From assembly GCA_964614065.1 (NCBI GenBank), contig CAZTJJ010000006.1, forward strand, positions 1-54,912: 54,912 nucleotides of DNA, given 5' to 3'. This stretch comes from an uncultured Thermotogae bacterium (GTDB lineage: Bacteria > Bipolaricaulota > Bipolaricaulia > M55B111). Below the pieces are notes generated by a model. It saw nothing but the letters and a program-made list of their open reading frames with translations, was not told the DNA's origin and did no database searches. The number at the start of each line of letters is the position of its first letter. Position 1 is the stretch's first letter. The position numbers and the translations under genes are program-made. Positions 8,443 through 38,740 of the stretch are shown one piece after another.

Positions 8443-9261
8443 ATGAGCATAATGGATAAAATCAGGACGAAAAAGGAAGTCTTAATTATGGGAATCGTCA
8501 ATGTGACACCTGATTCCTTCTCTGACGGAGGAGTCTTTGCTGAGCGTGAAGACGCCGTTTCACATGGATTAGAACTTGAACAACAGGGAGCAGACATCAT
8601 TGATATCGGTGGGGAATCCACCAGACCCGGGGCAGCGGAAGTCCTTCTGGAGGAAGAAATCAGTAGAACTATCCCAGTAATCAAGAGTATTAGAGAGAAG
8701 ACTGACGTCGCAATCTCTATCGACACGTACAAATCGGAAGTAGCGAAACAAGCACTGGATGCGGGAGCAAATTTAATTAACGACATCAGCGCACTCAGGT
8801 TTGATCCCAAGTTAGGCAACGTCGCGGCAAAAAACGAGGTCCCCATCGTATTGATGCATATGCAAGGTACTCCTCAAACAATGCAAAAGAATCCAAAATA
8901 CGAAGATATAATTAGCGACATAATCGCTTTTTTCAAGGAAAGGATTAACGTAGCAACTAAATCGGGGATCGACGCAGAAAACATCATAGTGGACCCCGGG
9001 ATCGGATTTGGAAAGCGAACTGAACACAACTACGAAATATTGAGACGGCTAAACGAATTCCACGTATTAAACAAACCAATTTTACTTGGAACTTCGCGGA
9101 AATCTTTTATCGGCGATATACTTGATCTACCAGCAACAGAAAGATTAGAAGGTACAATCGCTAGTAATGTTGTTGGGATTTTGAAGGGCGCCAATATACT
9201 GAGAGTGCACGACGTACAAGAAGTTTACCGGGCAACTCAAGTAGCAATAAGATGCAAATAG
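8443..9261 (+). CDS. folP: Dihydropteroate synthase
   Basis: Pterin-binding DHPS motifs (DTYKSEVAKQALDAGANLINDISAL); 272 aa; RBS GGAGGAGGAG. Confidence 0.9.
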   Translation: MSIMDKIRTKKEVLIMGIVNVTPDSFSDGGVFAEREDAVSHGLELEQQGADIIDIGGESTRPGAAEVLLEEEISRTIPVIKSIREKTDVAISIDTYKSEVAKQALDAGANLINDISALRFDPKLGNVAAKNEVPIVLMHMQGTPQTMQKNPKYEDIISDIIAFFKERINVATKSGIDAENIIVDPGIGFGKRTEHNYEILRRLNEFHVLNKPILLGTSRKSFIGDILDLPATERLEGTIASNVVGILKGANILRVHDVQEVYRATQVAIRCK

Positions 9262-20073: not shown

Positions 20074-20102
20074 ACCGATTATCTCACGACTTACGCAGAA
20101 GG

Positions 20103-20146
20103 CTTGTTATCTTAATTAACGCTCGTGTACGTTCAATAAGATAACA
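20103..20146 (+). promoter_or_regulatory. 11-bp inverted repeat TTGTTATCTTA / TAAGATAACAA with a 22-nt spacer containing the inner palindrome AACG-N8-CGTT, 20 nt upstream of purP-1
   Basis: Seen directly in the sequence. Confidence 0.35.
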
Positions 20147-20166
20147 AAGAGTATAGAACCGCAAAC

Positions 20167-21321
20167 ATGCAGGACAAAAATACAGGTCAATTACAGAGGT
20201 GTCCGATAGTGGCAGTAAACCTAGATTACATAAAACAGCTAGTTAACGATTACAAGAGCCAGAGGACAAATAAACCGACAGTCGGGGTTCTCGGGTCCCA
20301 TTCAGCCTTGGAGATTGGGTACGGAGCAAAACAAGAAAACTTTGACACTGTAGTTGTTTGCGAAAGAGGAAGGGAAAAGACTTACACAGACCACTATGCC
20401 AACTTGTTCGACCATACTATGATACTCGATCGCTTCCAGGACATGGTTAACCAAAAAGTCCAAAACGAACTACGAGAGTTAAACACGATTTTTGTCCCTA
20501 ACAGATCCTTTGCTACCTACGTCGGCTACAACAACATTGAAAAAAAGTTCAAAGTGCCCCTACTTGGTAACCGTAGAATGTTACGAGCAGAGGAACGCTA
20601 CGAAGACAGAAACCAGTACTATCTACTTGATAAAGCGGAGATCAGCCGGCCAAAAGAGCTGGATTCTCCACAACAAATCGATTCCTTATCCATTATCAAA
20701 GTCCAGGAAAAGGAGAGATCCGTGGAACGAGCCTTCTTTTACGCCTCCTCTCCCCAAGAGTTTCAAAAACGAGCCCAAGAACGGATTAAACAAGGAATAA
20801 TTACAGAGGAAGATTTGGCCGAAGCAACAATAGAGAAAGTTGCTCTCGGAGGATTGTTCAACGCAAATTTCTTCTGGTCACCGCTGACTGATACAGTAGA
20901 TTTCCTGGGTTTCGACCGAAGAATCCAAACTGACCTAGATGGAGTGTTAAGGCTTCCCGCCGACGAACAACTTGAAGCAGGGATTGAACACCAAAATATC
21001 GAGGTCGGACATTACGGGTGCACAATGAGAGAATCGCAGTTGCAAAAGATCTTCCGCGCCGGACGAAAGTTCGTAGAAACTTGCAAGGCAGAATATCCGC
21101 CGGGCATAATAGGGCTCTTCGCTCTACAGGGGGTCCTGAACAAAGAGCTTGAATTTGTAGTATTCGATGCCTCACTCCGAGTCCCTGGTTCACCTTGCCT
21201 TGGTTCGACATCTCCATACATGAAGTACAAATATGGCGAGGAGATTGGTTCCGGTGGTAGAACCGCCATCGAAATCGATCACGCTATCGAACAAAAACGT
21301 TTGGAGGATATCGTAACGTGA
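20167..21321 (+). CDS. PurP-like paralog (5-formaminoimidazole-4-carboxamide ribonucleotide synthetase family), divergent copy
   Basis: N-terminal LGSHSALEI..GAKQENF..VVVCERGREK and central FYASS..GLFNANFFWSPL motifs match the archaeal PurP ATP-grasp family. The GAKGGRG loop is not conserved. Confidence 0.75.
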   Translation: MQDKNTGQLQRCPIVAVNLDYIKQLVNDYKSQRTNKPTVGVLGSHSALEIGYGAKQENFDTVVVCERGREKTYTDHYANLFDHTMILDRFQDMVNQKVQNELRELNTIFVPNRSFATYVGYNNIEKKFKVPLLGNRRMLRAEERYEDRNQYYLLDKAEISRPKELDSPQQIDSLSIIKVQEKERSVERAFFYASSPQEFQKRAQERIKQGIITEEDLAEATIEKVALGGLFNANFFWSPLTDTVDFLGFDRRIQTDLDGVLRLPADEQLEAGIEHQNIEVGHYGCTMRESQLQKIFRAGRKFVETCKAEYPPGIIGLFALQGVLNKELEFVVFDASLRVPGSPCLGSTSPYMKYKYGEEIGSGGRTAIEIDHAIEQKRLEDIVT

Positions 21322-22325
21322 TAGCTGACAAAACACCTACAATAGCTACAATCTGTTCACATTCAGCACTACAAATTTTCCATGGGGCCAGAGAAGAAAA
21401 TATGCCTACGCTGGGTATCTGCACTAAAGATAGGCTTGATCTATATAGCTCTTTTCCAAAAGCTGTTCCCGACGACTTTCTGGTAATCGACGAATTCCCT
21501 CAAGTGCTGGAAGCCAACATCCAATCAAAGTTAACTGCACAGAATTCAATAGTTGTTCCTCATGGGTCCTTCGTCGAATACGTGGGCCCACAGAAACTCA
21601 TCAATGATTTTAGTCCCCCGATCTTTGGAAATAAGCATACCCTGGAGTGGGAATCAGATCGAATCAAAGAACGAAAATGGCTTGAACGCTCAGGCATCAG
21701 GATCCCCAAGGAATACGAAAACCCAGCTGATATAGACCGCACCGTGATAGTAAAATTTTCCGGGGCAAAAGGAGGTAGGGGCTTTTTTCTCGCCAATTCC
21801 CAAGAGGAATTTCAGAGTAAAATTTCAGGAAGAGAGAACGAAGAGTACACCATCCAGGAGTGGGCAATGGGAACTAGATACTACCCTCATTACTTCTACT
21901 CACCGCTTCGGGGCAGGCTGGAGATACTTGGTTTCGACCGCCGGGACGAGTCCAACATAGATGAATACTATCGAGTGAATCAAGGAGAAAAAAGTTTCGT
22001 GGTGGTTGGAAACAAACCTCTGGCGGTACGAGAATCATTGCTCCCACAACTTTATAAGATGGGAAATAATCTGATCAAATCTTCTCAACAACTATTTGGT
22101 CCTGGATTATTCGGACCATTTTGCCTGGAGACTGTTTGCACGGACAAGCTTGAATTCATAACATTTGAAATCTCCGGGCGTATCGTGGCAGGAACCAACC
22201 TTTATCCACATGGTTCGCCGTATTCTTTTTACTACTACGATGAGCCCATGAGTACGGGTAAAAGAATAGCTAGAGAAATAAAAACTGCGTTCGAACAGGG
22301 TCAATTAGAGAATATTACCACGTAA
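21318..22325 (+). CDS. purP: 5-formaminoimidazole-4-carboxamide-1-beta-D-ribofuranosyl 5'-monophosphate synthetase (PurP, archaeal type)
   Basis: IATICSHSALQI, VIVKFSGAKGGRGFF, YFYSPL..LGFDRR..SNID and LPQL..GPFCLE..NLYPHGSPYS motifs are canonical PurP. GTG start overlaps the upstream stop. Confidence 0.85.
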   Translation: MIADKTPTIATICSHSALQIFHGAREENMPTLGICTKDRLDLYSSFPKAVPDDFLVIDEFPQVLEANIQSKLTAQNSIVVPHGSFVEYVGPQKLINDFSPPIFGNKHTLEWESDRIKERKWLERSGIRIPKEYENPADIDRTVIVKFSGAKGGRGFFLANSQEEFQSKISGRENEEYTIQEWAMGTRYYPHYFYSPLRGRLEILGFDRRDESNIDEYYRVNQGEKSFVVVGNKPLAVRESLLPQLYKMGNNLIKSSQQLFGPGLFGPFCLETVCTDKLEFITFEISGRIVAGTNLYPHGSPYSFYYYDEPMSTGKRIAREIKTAFEQGQLENITT

Positions 22326-22360: not shown

Positions 22361-23890
22361 ATGGACACAATTGCCATAGTTGATTTTGGCGGTCAATATT
22401 CCCATCTTATCGGAAGAAGGATTCGAGACATCGGTGTATTTGCGAAAATTTTTCCCGCAGATGTAACAGCCACAGAACTGCGAGAGGTACAAGCACTGAA
22501 GGGGGTTATCTTTTCAGGCGGAGCAAGCTCTGTTTACGAAGAGAACGCGCCGGATCCTGACCCGGAGCTAGTGAACCTGAACCTCCCTGTACTAGGTATT
22601 TGTTATGGTCACCAGCTTATCGCACAGCTCTGCGGTGGTAGGGTGGATAGCGGGGAAGCGGGAGAATATGGGACAACCGTTTTTTCCATTACTCGAGAAG
22701 CCTCCAAGTTACTTAACGGCTTCAACCCGACTCAGGAAGTTTGGATGAACCATAGTGACACGGTAACAGACATGCCTGCGGACTTCAAAATCATCGGTAA
22801 AACCAAAAACAGCCCAGTGGCAGCTTTTGCCAACACAGAACGCGGGTTATTTGGTGTGCAATTTCATCCCGAAGTCACTCATACAGAACAAGGAAATCTT
22901 GTTCTCAAAAATTTCGCAACAGAGATCTGCAACGCAAGCCGAAAATGGGATCCCAGCAACCTGGTAACAAGTATTATCAACAATGCCAAAAGTTTTATTG
23001 GTGATAGGAAAGCTATAATCGGTTTATCCGGAGGAGTTGACTCCTCCACTGCTGCAAGGATAGTAGCAAAGGCAATTGACAATAACCTAACTGCAGTCTA
23101 CGTAGACACTGGATTAATGCGTAAAGGTGAGACCAGCTCAATAATTAACGGGTTCAGTGAATCCAGACTGAACTTAAAAATCGTAGATGCAAAAGAACGT
23201 TTTTTGAGCAATCTCTCTGGTGTAAAGGATCCTGAAGAAAAACGCAAAATTATAGGAAAAACATTCATCGATTCGTTCACCAAAGTCGCAAGTGACCTGG
23301 GGGCAGAGGTCCTTATTCAAGGTACCATCTATTCAGATAGAATAGAAAGCGGGGTTACCACACACTCGGACACTATCAAATCTCACCATAATGTGGGAGG
23401 TATCCCGGAGAAGATTGATTTAGATATATACGAGCCCCTTCGCGACTTATACAAGGACGAAGTCCGCAGAATAGCCTCCGAACTTAACCTCCCAGACGAA
23501 ATAGTGAACCGCCACGTATTTCCTGGGCCTGGGCTGGCAATTAGAATAGTTGGGGAAGTAACCCCTGAGCGCGTTGAGATCGTCCGAGACGCTAGTTACA
23601 TAGTTGAACAACAGCTCCGAGAGGCAAACTTATACAACGAAGTCTGGATGGCATTTGCTGTATTGCTCCCCATTAAAAGTGTAGGGGTCCAGGGGGATAC
23701 ACGGAGCTATAGGTATCCAGTTGCGGTCAGAGTAGTAGAATCACAAGATGCTATGACCGCAAACTTCGCACAGATTCCCTACCCAGTTCTAGAAGATATC
23801 TCAACCAAGATAACCAACGAAATTCCCGAGGTGAATAGGGTTGTATACGATATCTCCAATAAACCGCCATCAACCATGGAATGGGAATAA
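22361..23890 (+). CDS. guaA: GMP synthase (glutamine-hydrolysing)
   Basis: Class I GATase domain with catalytic Cys (GICYGHQ), an ATP-PPase SGGVDSS motif, and a C-terminal dimerisation domain ending …MEWE. Confidence 0.95.
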   Translation: MDTIAIVDFGGQYSHLIGRRIRDIGVFAKIFPADVTATELREVQALKGVIFSGGASSVYEENAPDPDPELVNLNLPVLGICYGHQLIAQLCGGRVDSGEAGEYGTTVFSITREASKLLNGFNPTQEVWMNHSDTVTDMPADFKIIGKTKNSPVAAFANTERGLFGVQFHPEVTHTEQGNLVLKNFATEICNASRKWDPSNLVTSIINNAKSFIGDRKAIIGLSGGVDSSTAARIVAKAIDNNLTAVYVDTGLMRKGETSSIINGFSESRLNLKIVDAKERFLSNLSGVKDPEEKRKIIGKTFIDSFTKVASDLGAEVLIQGTIYSDRIESGVTTHSDTIKSHHNVGGIPEKIDLDIYEPLRDLYKDEVRRIASELNLPDEIVNRHVFPGPGLAIRIVGEVTPERVEIVRDASYIVEQQLREANLYNEVWMAFAVLLPIKSVGVQGDTRSYRYPVAVRVVESQDAMTANFAQIPYPVLEDISTKITNEIPEVNRVVYDISNKPPSTMEWE

Positions 23891-23973: not shown

Positions 23974-24423
23974 ATGAAACTAAGAGACAGAGATATAGAG
24001 ATTTTAAAATTCCTAAATCAGGATAGCCGTATGTCTTTGAGACATATTGCAAAGGAACTAGGAGTATCACCAACCACGGTGAGTAACCGAGTCCAAAAGA
24101 TGAGGGACGATGGCGTTATCGATAAGTTTAACCTTAAGGTTGATTTCAACAAACTCGGTTATTCTCTCACCGCAATAATCAAAGTCAAAGCAAAAAGTGA
24201 CGACCTTTCAAAGGTCCTAGAGGAACTTGAAAAATACGACTGTCTTACTCATATTTATGAAACGACGGGGGATTTCGACGTGATCAGCATAGGAAAGTTC
24301 AAAAGTAGAAAGGAAATGACCACTCAACTAGTTGATCTGGTACAATCACCCCATGTAGATACTACAAATACGTCCCTAGTCTTATCGACTATAAGAGAAT
24401 ACAATAACTCCGGTCTAATTTAA
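23974..24423 (+). CDS. Lrp/AsnC family transcriptional regulator
   Basis: N-terminal HTH (LKFLNQDSRMSLRHIAKELGVSPTTVSNRVQKM) plus a RAM domain; 149 aa. Confidence 0.85.
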   Translation: MKLRDRDIEILKFLNQDSRMSLRHIAKELGVSPTTVSNRVQKMRDDGVIDKFNLKVDFNKLGYSLTAIIKVKAKSDDLSKVLEELEKYDCLTHIYETTGDFDVISIGKFKSRKEMTTQLVDLVQSPHVDTTNTSLVLSTIREYNNSGLI

Positions 24424-37561: not shown

Positions 37562-37918
37562 ATGGACCAATATCACGAACCAATAGAAGATCTAGAATCA
37601 ACCGACAGAGATTTTGTTAGAGCACTAATGAGCCTTAAAGAAGAGGTCGAGGCAGTTAACTGGTATCAACAAAGAGTATCCGCCAGTGACGACGATGAAC
37701 TAAGTGAGATCCTTGCCCACAATAGAGATGAGGAAATAGAGCACGCGTGCATGGCAATTGAATGGCTCCGTCGCAACATGCCTGGCTGGGATGAAGAGTT
37801 GTCTACTTATCTATTCTCAGAAGCTCCGATAACACAAGTTGAAGAGCTGGAAGAAGAGGAAAACGCAACAGATGAAGGGCAAGAATCTCCCGACCTTGGC
37901 ATAGGCGGGTTGAGCTAA
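37562..37918 (+). CDS. Encapsulated ferritin-like protein (EncFtn/Flp cargo) with a C-terminal encapsulin-targeting peptide
   Basis: Ferritin-like ExxH site (DEEIEHACMAIEWL) and C-terminal …SPDLGIGGLS matching the family-1 cargo-loading peptide consensus. Confidence 0.8.
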   Translation: MDQYHEPIEDLESTDRDFVRALMSLKEEVEAVNWYQQRVSASDDDELSEILAHNRDEEIEHACMAIEWLRRNMPGWDEELSTYLFSEAPITQVEELEEEENATDEGQESPDLGIGGLS

Positions 37919-37948
37919 TCATCCCAAATCATTAAAGAGGTGAAAAAA

Positions 37949-38740
37949 ATGGATTATTTAAAACGATCGTTGGCTCCAATAACTGACGCAGGTTGGGACG
38001 AAATAGACGACCAAGCAAGAGAAGTATTAATCAGTCAACTGACAGGAAGGAAATTTGTCGACGTGACAGACCCCCAAGGTTGGTATTTCTCCGCTGTTTC
38101 AGAGGGCAGATTAGACATCAAAGAAGACGATCCAGGAAAAGTAAGATACGGCACCAGGAAAACCTCGCCACTCGTAGAAACAAGAACTTCCTTCAATTTA
38201 AACATCTGGGAACTTGACAACCTAAGCCGAGGTGCAAAGGATTTGGATCTTTCACCTCTAGAGGCTGCAGCCGAGAAAGCGGCTCAATTCGAGGAAGACG
38301 TTATTTACAAAGGACTTAAAGACTCAGAGATAAAAGGCTTAACTCAAGTCTCCGAAACCTCTTTCGATATACCTGAAGGTCCAGAAGGTATCGTTGAGGC
38401 AATATCAAAAGGTGTAATGACTTTGCAGGATACCTCCATCGAAGGTCCCTATTCTATGGTGGCAAATCGAGACCTATGGCAGAAGATCGCCAAGTCCTCG
38501 AAAGGTTACCCACTGAAAAGACATTTAGAAGATCTAATCGATGGATCAATCATTTACAACCCACACCTTGACAACGCCTTACTGTTATCAACAAGAGGCG
38601 GGGATTACGAGTTAATTCTGGGGCAGGATTTCTCAATTGGCTACGAAAACCACGACAGTACAGAAGTCAAGTTATTCCTCACAGAAAGTTTCAGCTTTAG
38701 AATTTTAGAACCCGGGGCGGTTGTTACCTTGACTCAATAA
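37949..38740 (+). CDS. Family 1 encapsulin nanocompartment shell protein (HK97-fold)
   Basis: Clear full-length similarity to the Thermotoga maritima encapsulin (LKRS.AP.T...W.EID..ARE, GRKFVDV, …ELDNL.RG…, GGD..LILGQD.SIGYE). The ATG at 37949 has RBS AAAGAGGTGA; the ORF track extends it to 37940. Confidence 0.9.
   Translation: MDYLKRSLAPITDAGWDEIDDQAREVLISQLTGRKFVDVTDPQGWYFSAVSEGRLDIKEDDPGKVRYGTRKTSPLVETRTSFNLNIWELDNLSRGAKDLDLSPLEAAAEKAAQFEEDVIYKGLKDSEIKGLTQVSETSFDIPEGPEGIVEAISKGVMTLQDTSIEGPYSMVANRDLWQKIAKSSKGYPLKRHLEDLIDGSIIYNPHLDNALLLSTRGGDYELILGQDFSIGYENHDSTEVKLFLTESFSFRILEPGAVVTLTQ

Follow-up and report, generated by a model that had tools for sequence, protein, structure and literature searches.

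How did a pair of genes from a family treated so far as an archaeal signature come to stand in a bacterial genome, and what may the two proteins do there? The question is raised by a stretch of 54,912 nucleotides (nt), hereafter the window, which covers positions 1 to 54,912 of contig CAZTJJ010000006.1 (assembly GCA_964614065.1), deposited under an uncultured Thermotogae bacterium and placed by GTDB in the Bipolaricaulota. Two adjacent genes on its forward strand, called A and B here, encode proteins of the PurP family, named for the enzyme that formylates 5-aminoimidazole-4-carboxamide ribonucleotide (AICAR) to FAICAR (5-formamidoimidazole-4-carboxamide ribonucleotide) with formate and adenosine triphosphate (ATP). 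In a survey of 1,403 complete genomes, PurP was found only in Archaea and in none of the Bacteria (PMC6486802). Judged by their diagnostic residues, A and B are bacterial members of the known archaeal pair of PurP III and PurP II, which contradicts this published Archaea-only distribution. Their family as such is already known, as public databases annotate these proteins as PurP; a literature search on PurP in Bipolaricaulota found nothing relevant.

Gene A, a PurP-like ATP-grasp protein of the PurP III or cluster II type, is taken to run from a GTG codon at 20209 to position 21321 of the forward strand (370 amino acids, aa). The longest open reading frame (ORF) containing it begins at ATG 20167 (20167-21321, forward strand, 384 aa). 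Gene B, of the PurP II or cluster Ib type, occupies 21318-22325 on the same strand and encodes 335 aa from a GTG start. A ends and B begins in a shared stretch of 4 nt (GTGA), and the Shine-Dalgarno sequence of B, GGAGGA (21303-21308, forward strand), lies within the 3' end of A, 9 nt before GTG 21318.

Both proteins match the two Pfam domains of the PurP superfamily over their full length, DUF1246 and DUF1297, with 148.8 and 215.6 bits for A and 142.8 and 207.8 bits for B (gathering cut-offs 25 and 23.8; E values from 1e-42 to 1e-64). Every NCBIfam model for PurP (formate--phosphoribosylaminoimidazolecarboxamide ligase) is matched as well, always below its equivalog cut-off. In the PurP I equivalog models NF009778-NF009783, the best score of A is 302 against a cut-off of 556, and B reaches 388 against 603 and 363 against 556. 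The structure of the Methanocaldococcus jannaschii enzyme MJ0136 (2R7K) is matched with 253 bits by A and 318 bits by B, and that of Pyrococcus furiosus PF1517 (2R84) with 158 and about 290 bits. The original prediction had read the locus as an archaeal-type PurP pair on a bacterial genome and had named a profile search as the means by which this could fail; the Pfam and NCBIfam matches uphold the family, and the genes around the pair are those of a bacterium. Its motif blocks were mostly recovered: LGSHSAL is present in A, YFYSPL in B and LGFDRR in both, but A carries FFWSPL instead of YFYSPL, while the corresponding N-terminal block of B reads ICSHSAL. The naming of both genes as formate-dependent FAICAR synthetases was right as to the family but overstated as to the activity, which has been demonstrated only for PurP I of M. 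jannaschii.

The PurP family has been divided into clusters Ia, Ib and II (Brown et al. 2011, PMC3261824) and later into PurP I, II, III and IV (Cruz et al. 2019, PMC6486802). Two hallmarks set cluster II, or PurP III, apart: at M. jannaschii position 258, His takes the place of Asn, and the lid is two residues longer than the (K/R)GG(K/R)G motif at 161-165, with charged residues replacing the glycines (PMC3261824; PMC6486802). Both are found in A, which has His at position 258 and a lid longer by two residues, charged and without glycines; at the loop position, KVQEKERSVERAFF of A stands against KFSGAKGGRGFF of B. B has Asn258 and KGGRG, by which PurP II or cluster Ib is defined (PMC3261824). 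The original prediction had thus been correct that the downstream copy keeps GAKGGRG and that the upstream copy lacks this glycine-rich loop.

The same division holds throughout the family. An alignment of 262 sequences was assembled from the top matches of A and of B, the ORFs of the retrieved loci (labelled L and a number below), MJ0136 and PF1517. All 130 A-type sequences in it have His258 together with the loop K-V-x-E-(K/Q/R)-x-R-x-x-E-R-A-F-F, and all 132 B-type sequences have Asn258 together with G-A-(K/R)-G-G-(K/R)-G. This dichotomy is repeated in 65 full-length representatives of clusters at 50% identity, 42 of them A-type, down to about 30% identity, and B has the B-type consensus residue at nearly all positions that are at least 95% conserved among B-type sequences. 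In a neighbour-joining (NJ) tree with 100 bootstraps, the split between the two types is recovered at 100%. B groups with the PF1517 type, and the M. jannaschii PurP I and a third Methanocella copy fall outside that group, within which the resolution of the NJ tree is weak. From these diagnostic residues and the tree, A is assigned to PurP III (cluster II) and B to PurP II (cluster Ib). The third copy lies in a metagenome-assembled genome of Methanocellaceae (L008:3964-5061), 5 kb upstream of a III-II pair; it has Asn258 and a GARGGRG lid, branches near M. jannaschii PurP I and fits the three-copy situation reported for Methanocella paludicola.

The replaced loop of A had been taken for degeneration, and its origin for a subfunctionalisation within the host genome. 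Neither view holds. Because it recurs in all 130 A-type sequences and in the 42 A-type representatives, the loop is an ancient hallmark of its class, published as such, and is best regarded as no local decay. As A and B share 33% identity, they can be described as ancient paralogues and not as products of a recent tandem duplication. A local duplication with one copy decaying was considered and rejected on this identity, on the separate and ancient clades of the two genes, and on the observation that A is the more conserved of the two.

The constraint on A was followed further, as it bears on whether this gene might be a non-functional relic of gene transfer, a pseudo-enzyme beside which only B matters. 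Such a relic would lack the glycine-rich ATP-grasp lid, as A does, and PF0421, the PurP III of P. furiosus, is inactive in vitro (PMC3261824). However, the ratio of non-synonymous to synonymous substitution rates (dN/dS) between the window and its relative L018 comes to 0.10 (A), 0.085 (B) and 0.093 (guaA, the gene that follows them). Both genes are under purifying selection as strong as that on guaA. In 46 of 55 comparisons among the 11 loci with both genes, A proteins are more similar to one another than B proteins are (mean identities 0.615 vs 0.53). Against the Bathyarchaeia and Methanocellaceae, A shows 61-68% identity and B 42-45%; the closest archaeal B proteins, from Altiarchaeota and ANME-1, reach 53-58%, so that the bacterial proteins and those of most archaea share 61-68% for A and 42-58% for B. 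The replacement loop is invariant, and no sampled lineage with B is without the A class (also PMC6486802). The decay of A is effectively refuted, and A is best seen as a member of a conserved paralogue class and no decayed copy, because its loop is invariant, it evolves more slowly than B and its dN/dS is about 0.1.

What A has kept and what it has changed can be read from the alignment, with residue roles after Brown et al. 2011 (PMC3261824). In the numbering of M. jannaschii PurP, the two classes have in common His27, Ser94, Lys156, Asp226, Arg228, Arg264-Glu265-Ser266, Ser312, Arg314, Arg342 and Glu346. Neither group varies at the formyl contacts His27 and Arg314, known to be conserved across all PurP classes (PMC3261824; PMC6486802), or at Ser94 and Ser266, which contact the AICAR phosphate, and A and B each carry all four. 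The A class has switched His92-Gly93 to Asn-Arg, Gly159 to Glu, Gly162 to Arg, Glu230 to Gln, Asn258 to His, Pro260 to Gly, Glu310 to Asp and Asn320 to Pro. In an alignment of 48 A-type sequences, the lid residues E181, R184, E187, R188, A189, F190 and F191 do not vary.

An AlphaFold2 model of A (mean predicted local distance difference test score, pLDDT, 82; predicted template-modelling score, pTM, 0.82) has the PurP fold, with template-modelling (TM) scores of 0.78-0.85 to 2R7L, 2R7M and 2R7K. Its segments of low confidence are the lid (183-187), the loop (277-284) with His282, which aligns with Asn258 of M. jannaschii, and residues 341-345. The PurP I enzyme MJ0136 is the closest match to A by sequence in the PDB. 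The only PurP entries that a PDB search with A and B returned were MJ0136, PF1517 (PurP II) and Thermococcus kodakarensis TK0431 (2PBZ), with no PurP III structure apparent among them.

Could the contig simply be a mis-binned piece of an archaeal genome? This was rejected, as bacterial core genes lie within the same 55-kb window. These include genes for FtsH, Dxr, MurJ, ribosomal protein L9, FolP and HisS, a riboflavin operon, and genes for YidC, Jag, MnmE, a sigma-70-family sigma factor of the SigB/F/G type and RadC. The window also carries genes for pyruvate:ferredoxin oxidoreductase, RecJ, SecF, encapsulin, RecA, RecX and DprA, and a shikimate operon. With FtsH, MurJ, YidC, MnmE, the sigma-70-family factor, RecA and DprA present, the host contig is clearly bacterial, and its nearest relatives are Candidatus Bipolaricaulota (Acetothermia). 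The closest homologues of both A and B, at 66-88% identity, belong to this group, and in one locus (L018, 87-88% amino-acid identity) synteny with the window is complete from the riboflavin genes through a response regulator. Two database labels on related loci were found unreliable: the "Thermotogae" locus L002 is syntenic with the window, and L011, under the same label, carries a bacterial dnaA and groups with the Acetothermia loci of a second clade. An apparent PurP in "Caulobacter" (L012, CAZRPD010000021.1, 1-760) was also rejected, as the contig is chimeric; the 3' end of a PurP III of the Bipolaricaulota type and the first ~25 codons of a PurP II, 79% identical to B of the window, are followed abruptly by unrelated GC-rich DNA.

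The superfamily is a small one: out of 1.84 billion, 560 representatives match at E ≤ 1e-3. Among the matches listed, the named homologues of A and B outside Bipolaricaulota are archaeal, and in one retrieved set of homologous loci, the only non-bacterial ones are from Bathyarchaeia and Methanocellaceae. The restriction of the II and III pair to Archaea does not hold here, as the window contig is bacterial and the pair of L011 lies next to a bacterial dnaA. In the NJ trees, the Bipolaricaulota nest among archaeal sequences, which agrees with the archaeal transfer that the original prediction had proposed to test by phylogeny. They fall into two clades. Clade 1, to which the window belongs, has bootstraps of 94% for A and 83% for B, and clade 2, in which the pair lies in a pur operon, has 100% for both. 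The two clades were not recovered as a single group (25% for A, 2% for B), and either one ancient transfer into the Bipolaricaulota or two are possible under this tree. The GC content of the pair, overall and at third codon positions (GC3), equals the window average, and this match with the background indicates an old transfer. Since the order A to B and the 4-nt overlap are the same in archaea and Bipolaricaulota, the pair probably crossed between the domains as a unit, and the direction from archaea to bacteria is probably the simplest reading. Two clades, identities of 60-88% between members and a genome-like GC content argue that the II and III pair is a stable, selected part of a phylum-level bacterial lineage, the Bipolaricaulota.

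The coupled gene order is observed in both domains. Within ±10 kb of the matched gene, the tandem A to B is present in all Bipolaricaulota loci whose sequence continues downstream of A (L001, L002, L003, L007, L009, L010, L011, L018 and L101), and also in Bathyarchaeia (L004, L005), Methanocellaceae (L008) and Altiarchaeota (L013). Classes II and III occur together in the window and in loci L001-L011, L013, L016, L018 and L101. A census of metagenomes with an A-type profile retrieved 80 loci, of which 76 could be assessed for B. In 68 of these 76, B starts no further than 200 nt from where A ends, and in 49 of the 55 pairs with called ORFs, the overlap is exactly 4 nt.

The surroundings of the pair are those of purine synthesis. 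In clade 2 of the Bipolaricaulota (L006, L007, L009, L011), the order is a possible purF (a weak GATase match), purL, purQ, purM, a fusion of Formyl_trans_N and SAICAR_synt domains, purB, A and B, and the dnaA of L011 follows the pair. Thus, the pair stands after purB, in the slot of purH, within a pur operon that otherwise looks complete. No PurH domain was found among the ORFs scanned in the Bipolaricaulota loci, clade-2 pur operon included, which cover a small fraction of the genomes. Likewise, a blastp search with Escherichia coli PurH found no match in the 80 metagenome loci, again a small fraction of any genome. No PurH-like ORF was found at the examined loci; PurO and stand-alone PurJ were not searched for. 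The gene directly upstream of A is purC in 44 of the 80 metagenome loci, and in L089 the order is purE, purC, A and B. The fusion in clade-2 Acetothermia is itself an unusual one, a protein of 624-662 aa in which a PurN-like Formyl_trans_N domain (a weak match) is joined to a phosphoribosylaminoimidazole-succinocarboxamide (SAICAR) synthetase domain as purN-purC, just upstream of purB and the PurP pair. It was identified by domain scan at L007:6593-8467 and L006:5958-7946 and assigned by matching size and position at L009:469-2358 and L011:125-1999.

In the window, the link is to guaA, which encodes a glutamine-hydrolysing guanosine monophosphate (GMP) synthase at 22361-23890 of the forward strand (NF000848, 695 bits, cut-off 400). 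It begins 35 nt after B, and no terminator-like site was found by a terminator scan between the two; in L018 the called guaA abuts the stop codon of B. The translational coupling and the place beside guaA described by the original prediction are both confirmed, and guaA is probably co-transcribed with A and B. The gene also adjoins the pair in L002, L003 and L018. In the archaeal locus L028, a GMP-synthase subunit lies directly upstream of A-B, a parallel to the window, and linkage of guaA to PurP III has been reported for AF0256 of Archaeoglobus fulgidus (PMC3261824). No other pur gene lies within the window.

What might the two proteins do together? FAICAR synthetase activity from AICAR, formate and ATP has been demonstrated only for the M. 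jannaschii PurP I, MJ0136. PF1517 (PurP II) of P. furiosus binds ATP and AICAR, and it and PF0421 (PurP III) are each inactive alone. Extracts of Sulfolobus solfataricus, which has only II and III, incorporate formate into inosine monophosphate (IMP) from AICAR. Wherever they are found in archaeal genomes, 61 in all, PurP II and PurP III occur together, and a heterohexamer of the two has been proposed (all PMC3261824, PMC6486802). Set beside this, the conserved residues and gene order make it rather likely, in our judgement, that the pair is an obligate two-subunit system for the ATP- and formate-dependent formylation of AICAR. A Bipolaricaulota ancestor would have acquired PurP III and PurP II from archaea as one two-gene unit, which would by now be fully ameliorated and an ordinary genomic component, expressed as purP3-purP2-guaA. 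A and B would jointly formylate AICAR to FAICAR with ATP and formate, in step 9 of de novo purine synthesis, and the FAICAR so formed would feed IMP to GuaA. B would supply the canonical ATP-grasp chemistry, with its glycine-rich lid, its Asn258 and all the residues conserved with the characterised M. jannaschii enzyme. A would retain the AICAR-phosphate and formyl contacts (His27, Ser94, Ser266, Arg314) and the ATP-grasp residues Lys156 and Asp310, while its different, invariant lid rich in Glu and Arg and its His in place of Asn258 would make it a specialised partner. The invariant lid, His258 and the retained pocket residues speak for such a partner and not for a dead copy. The physical hetero-oligomer, formate as one-carbon donor and the exact job of A are the parts that we infer; the putative A-B complex is suggested indirectly, by coupling, co-transfer and co-occurrence. 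A hetero-oligomer had been among the options of the original prediction, and this option is plausible and has been published before.

Several known systems can be set beside the pair. The archaeal II and III pair (PF1517 and PF0421; adjacent pairs in Sulfolobales, Pyrobaculum and Korarchaeum) consists of the same two subclasses by diagnostic residues. The order III to II and the 4-nt overlap of the window match the Bathyarchaeia and Methanocellaceae loci, and the linkage to purC, purB and guaA is likewise shared. The window differs in that its host is bacterial (Bipolaricaulota), where the published surveys have Archaea only (PMC6486802), in that the B proteins of its clade are shorter (333-335 aa, against about 346-360 aa), and in that its host also has folate biosynthesis. 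M. jannaschii PurP I (MJ0136; PDB 2R7K-2R7N) has the same fold as the A model, and its His27, Ser94, Lys156, Arg264-Glu265-Ser266 and Arg314 are conserved in A and B. However, it is a single-gene homohexamer and alone in its genomes, whereas A has a remodelled lid and His258, and both A and B score far below the equivalog cut-offs. PurH, the AICAR transformylase and IMP cyclohydrolase that is the usual bacterial solution, would serve the same presumed step, AICAR to FAICAR (and on to IMP), and occupies the same slot after purB. Its fold and chemistry are unrelated, as it takes the formyl group from 10-formyl-tetrahydrofolate, without ATP. PurT (the formate-dependent glycinamide ribonucleotide transformylase), PurK and PurD share the ATP-grasp fold and the logic of formate and ATP through formyl phosphate. 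They are distant structural matches to the A model (8-14% identity in structural alignments), and differ in their substrates and in being single subunits. A catalytically altered paralogue serves as the obligate partner of an enzyme in systems of the HisZ-HisG type. The likeness of the pair to HisZ-HisG would be one of concept, an ancient paralogue with a remodelled active site encoded beside the enzyme, with no homology to the PurP pair.

Several points weigh against the proposal of a joint formylating system. Five metagenome loci (L026, L029, L049, L074, L080) have an A-type gene with no B downstream in the 0.7-4.6 kb of sequence available, and A and B are 3.4 kb apart in the lineage of L015, L016 and L083, which is probably archaeal and has genes for mevalonate kinase and a MoeA of archaeal type. 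The trees of A and B do not agree in full. B of the archaeal L016 set is sister to Bipolaricaulota clade 1 at 84%, while its A lies outside the clade that holds the Bipolaricaulota and the other archaeal A-type sequences, Altiarchaeota excepted (72%). No fusion of A and B of the Rosetta-stone kind was found among the matches listed. The host makes folate, and its relatives carry a PurN-like domain. Since PF1517 binds ATP and AICAR and yet is inactive, a formyl donor or cofactor of another kind is possible. It is also possible that a folate-dependent PurH elsewhere in the genome makes the pair redundant or leaves it otherwise employed.

The residues changed in A allow another division of labour, in which the two proteins act in sequence: B would be the formate- and ATP-dependent FAICAR synthetase and A would close the ring of FAICAR to IMP, as the missing IMP cyclohydrolase, perhaps in a channelling complex. 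A keeps the contacts to the AICAR 5'-phosphate and the formyl group (His27, Ser94, Ser266, Arg314) and has lost the glycine-rich ATP lid, and the carboxamide-contacting Asn258 has become an invariant His, a plausible general base (residue roles PMC3261824). Crenarchaeota and Pyrococcus with PurP II and III have no known IMP cyclohydrolase, which is why the idea was raised by Brown et al. (PMC3261824). It gains further from the lack of anything like E. coli PurH in the clade-2 pur operon or the 80 metagenome loci. The phyletic pattern is, however, imperfect, as II and III occur alongside PurJ in Archaeoglobus, PurO in Methanosaeta and PurH in 10 archaeal genomes (PMC6486802). PF1517 alone has no FAICAR synthetase activity, and A keeps Lys156, Glu199-Glu200 and Asp310 across very diverse members, which is unexpected for an ATP-independent cyclase. 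We hold such a sequential arrangement to be unlikely on balance. In a broader form, A may activate PurP II, whether by forming the second trimer of a heterohexamer or by acting as the missing IMP cyclohydrolase where PurH, PurO and PurJ are lacking; this can be put forward only tentatively.

The folate metabolism of the host points to a different possibility, that a folate-dependent PurH carries the main flux through step 9 and the pair has an accessory or conditional role, for example in recycling AICAR from histidine synthesis when formate is abundant or folate scarce, or acts on another acyl substrate. The original prediction had recognised the host as a folate maker, and folP is indeed present at 8443-9261 (TIGR01496, 340 bits). 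A Formyl_trans_N domain of the PurN type lies in the same operon in the clade-2 relatives, PurH is combined with PurP II and III in 10 archaeal genomes (PMC6486802), Korarchaeum has the pair without the remaining pathway (PMC3261824), and the pair of the window is linked to guaA and not to pur genes. On the other side, the clade-2 pair occupies the purH slot described above, in an operon with no purH, the selection on A and B is as strong as on guaA, and nothing points to an alternative substrate. An accessory role is accordingly regarded as improbable, and the joint formylation of AICAR by A and B is preferred.

The joint system is of interest beyond this genome. A joint transfer across domains with order and overlap kept, and with the pair in the purH slot in one clade, independently supports a mutual need of the two proteins and their action at the AICAR step. 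This touches an old gap, namely what PurP II and III do and which protein is the IMP cyclohydrolase missing from archaea. If A is indeed a catalytic partner or a cyclohydrolase, the unit that moved into Bipolaricaulota would be a self-contained two-gene replacement of PurH. Its bacterial, non-thermophilic version would then be the most tractable one for the PurP II/III question, which has been open since at least 2008. The bacterial proteins should be easier to express and to test in E. coli purH mutants. Otherwise, the event is of a well-understood type, the horizontal transfer of a known gene pair, and by itself no new kind of system.

The start of A was placed with the help of the relatives. 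L018 has no ATG equivalent to 20167, and between the two possible starts its frame is broken by a 1-nt indel; its gene begins at the equivalent of GTG 20209, after a conserved AGAGGTGTCCGATA, and L101 agrees. The homologues of A are mostly 365-370 aa long among the matches listed. From the starts in L018 and L101 and these lengths, GTG 20209 is most likely the start, giving 370 aa. A Shine-Dalgarno-like GAGGTG lies at 20196-20201 on the forward strand, 7 nt before it, and GAGGTGT upstream of the start codon is conserved in L018, L101, L001, L002 and L010. The first 14 codons of the longest ORF (20167-20208) are probably 5' untranslated. In the relatives this segment is conserved at the nucleotide level in spite of the frame-breaking 1-nt indel (AAAAATACAGGT ... 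AGAGGTGTCCGATA), and it could be a conserved leader element.

Further upstream, 62 nt before the probable start, lies an imperfect palindrome, TTGTTATCTTAATTAACG-N8-CGTTCAATAAGATAACAA, at 20104-20147 (no strand assigned), with arms of 18 nt that are 89% complementary and 8 nt apart. An inverted repeat had been noted here as 20103-20146 with arms of 11 bp; the repeat is real, but its limits and arm length are those given here. The motif TTGTTAT-N(0-30)-ATAACAA occurs once in the window and in none of 100 shuffles. The half-sites TTGTTAT and ATAACAA recur upstream of A in L018, which also has a perfect TTGTTATAACAA, and L101 has TGTTA-N6-TAACA at this place; they were not found in the more distant relatives L001, L002, L003 and L010. 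An RNA hairpin or terminator is unsupported, as the RNA fold is no better than that of shuffled sequence (z = -0.33), no T-run follows and the terminator scan made no call. The suggestion that the repeat is a purine-responsive operator was not borne out either. No match to the E. coli PurR box was found with up to 3 mismatches, the Bacillus subtilis PurBox is matched at chance level only and nowhere near 20100, and a site of either kind was rejected; the TGTTA/TAACA half-sites recur only in the two closest relatives. The palindrome is a reasonable candidate for a protein-binding site, with an Lrp/AsnC regulator as one candidate binder, and any purine-responsive role for it is speculation.

A gene for such a regulator lies directly 3' of guaA, at 23974-24423 on the forward strand, with NCBIfam matches of the Lrp type that are all below cut-off, and its position is syntenic in L002, L003 and L018. 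From this conserved position, the protein may possibly regulate the cluster, a weak inference. Among NCBIfam models, it matches the haloarchaeal Lrp model NF041396 best (133 bits against a cut-off of 190), and it may be another gene of archaeal affinity.

Elsewhere in the window, ARAGORN found no complete tRNA gene, and positions 1-56 hold the 3' portion of one that is truncated where the window begins (Rfam tRNA, 31.6 bits). The gene at 37940-38740 encodes the shell protein of a family-1 encapsulin (Linocin_M18, 280 bits), and the ORF just 5' of it (37562-37918, 118 aa) could encode the encapsulin cargo.

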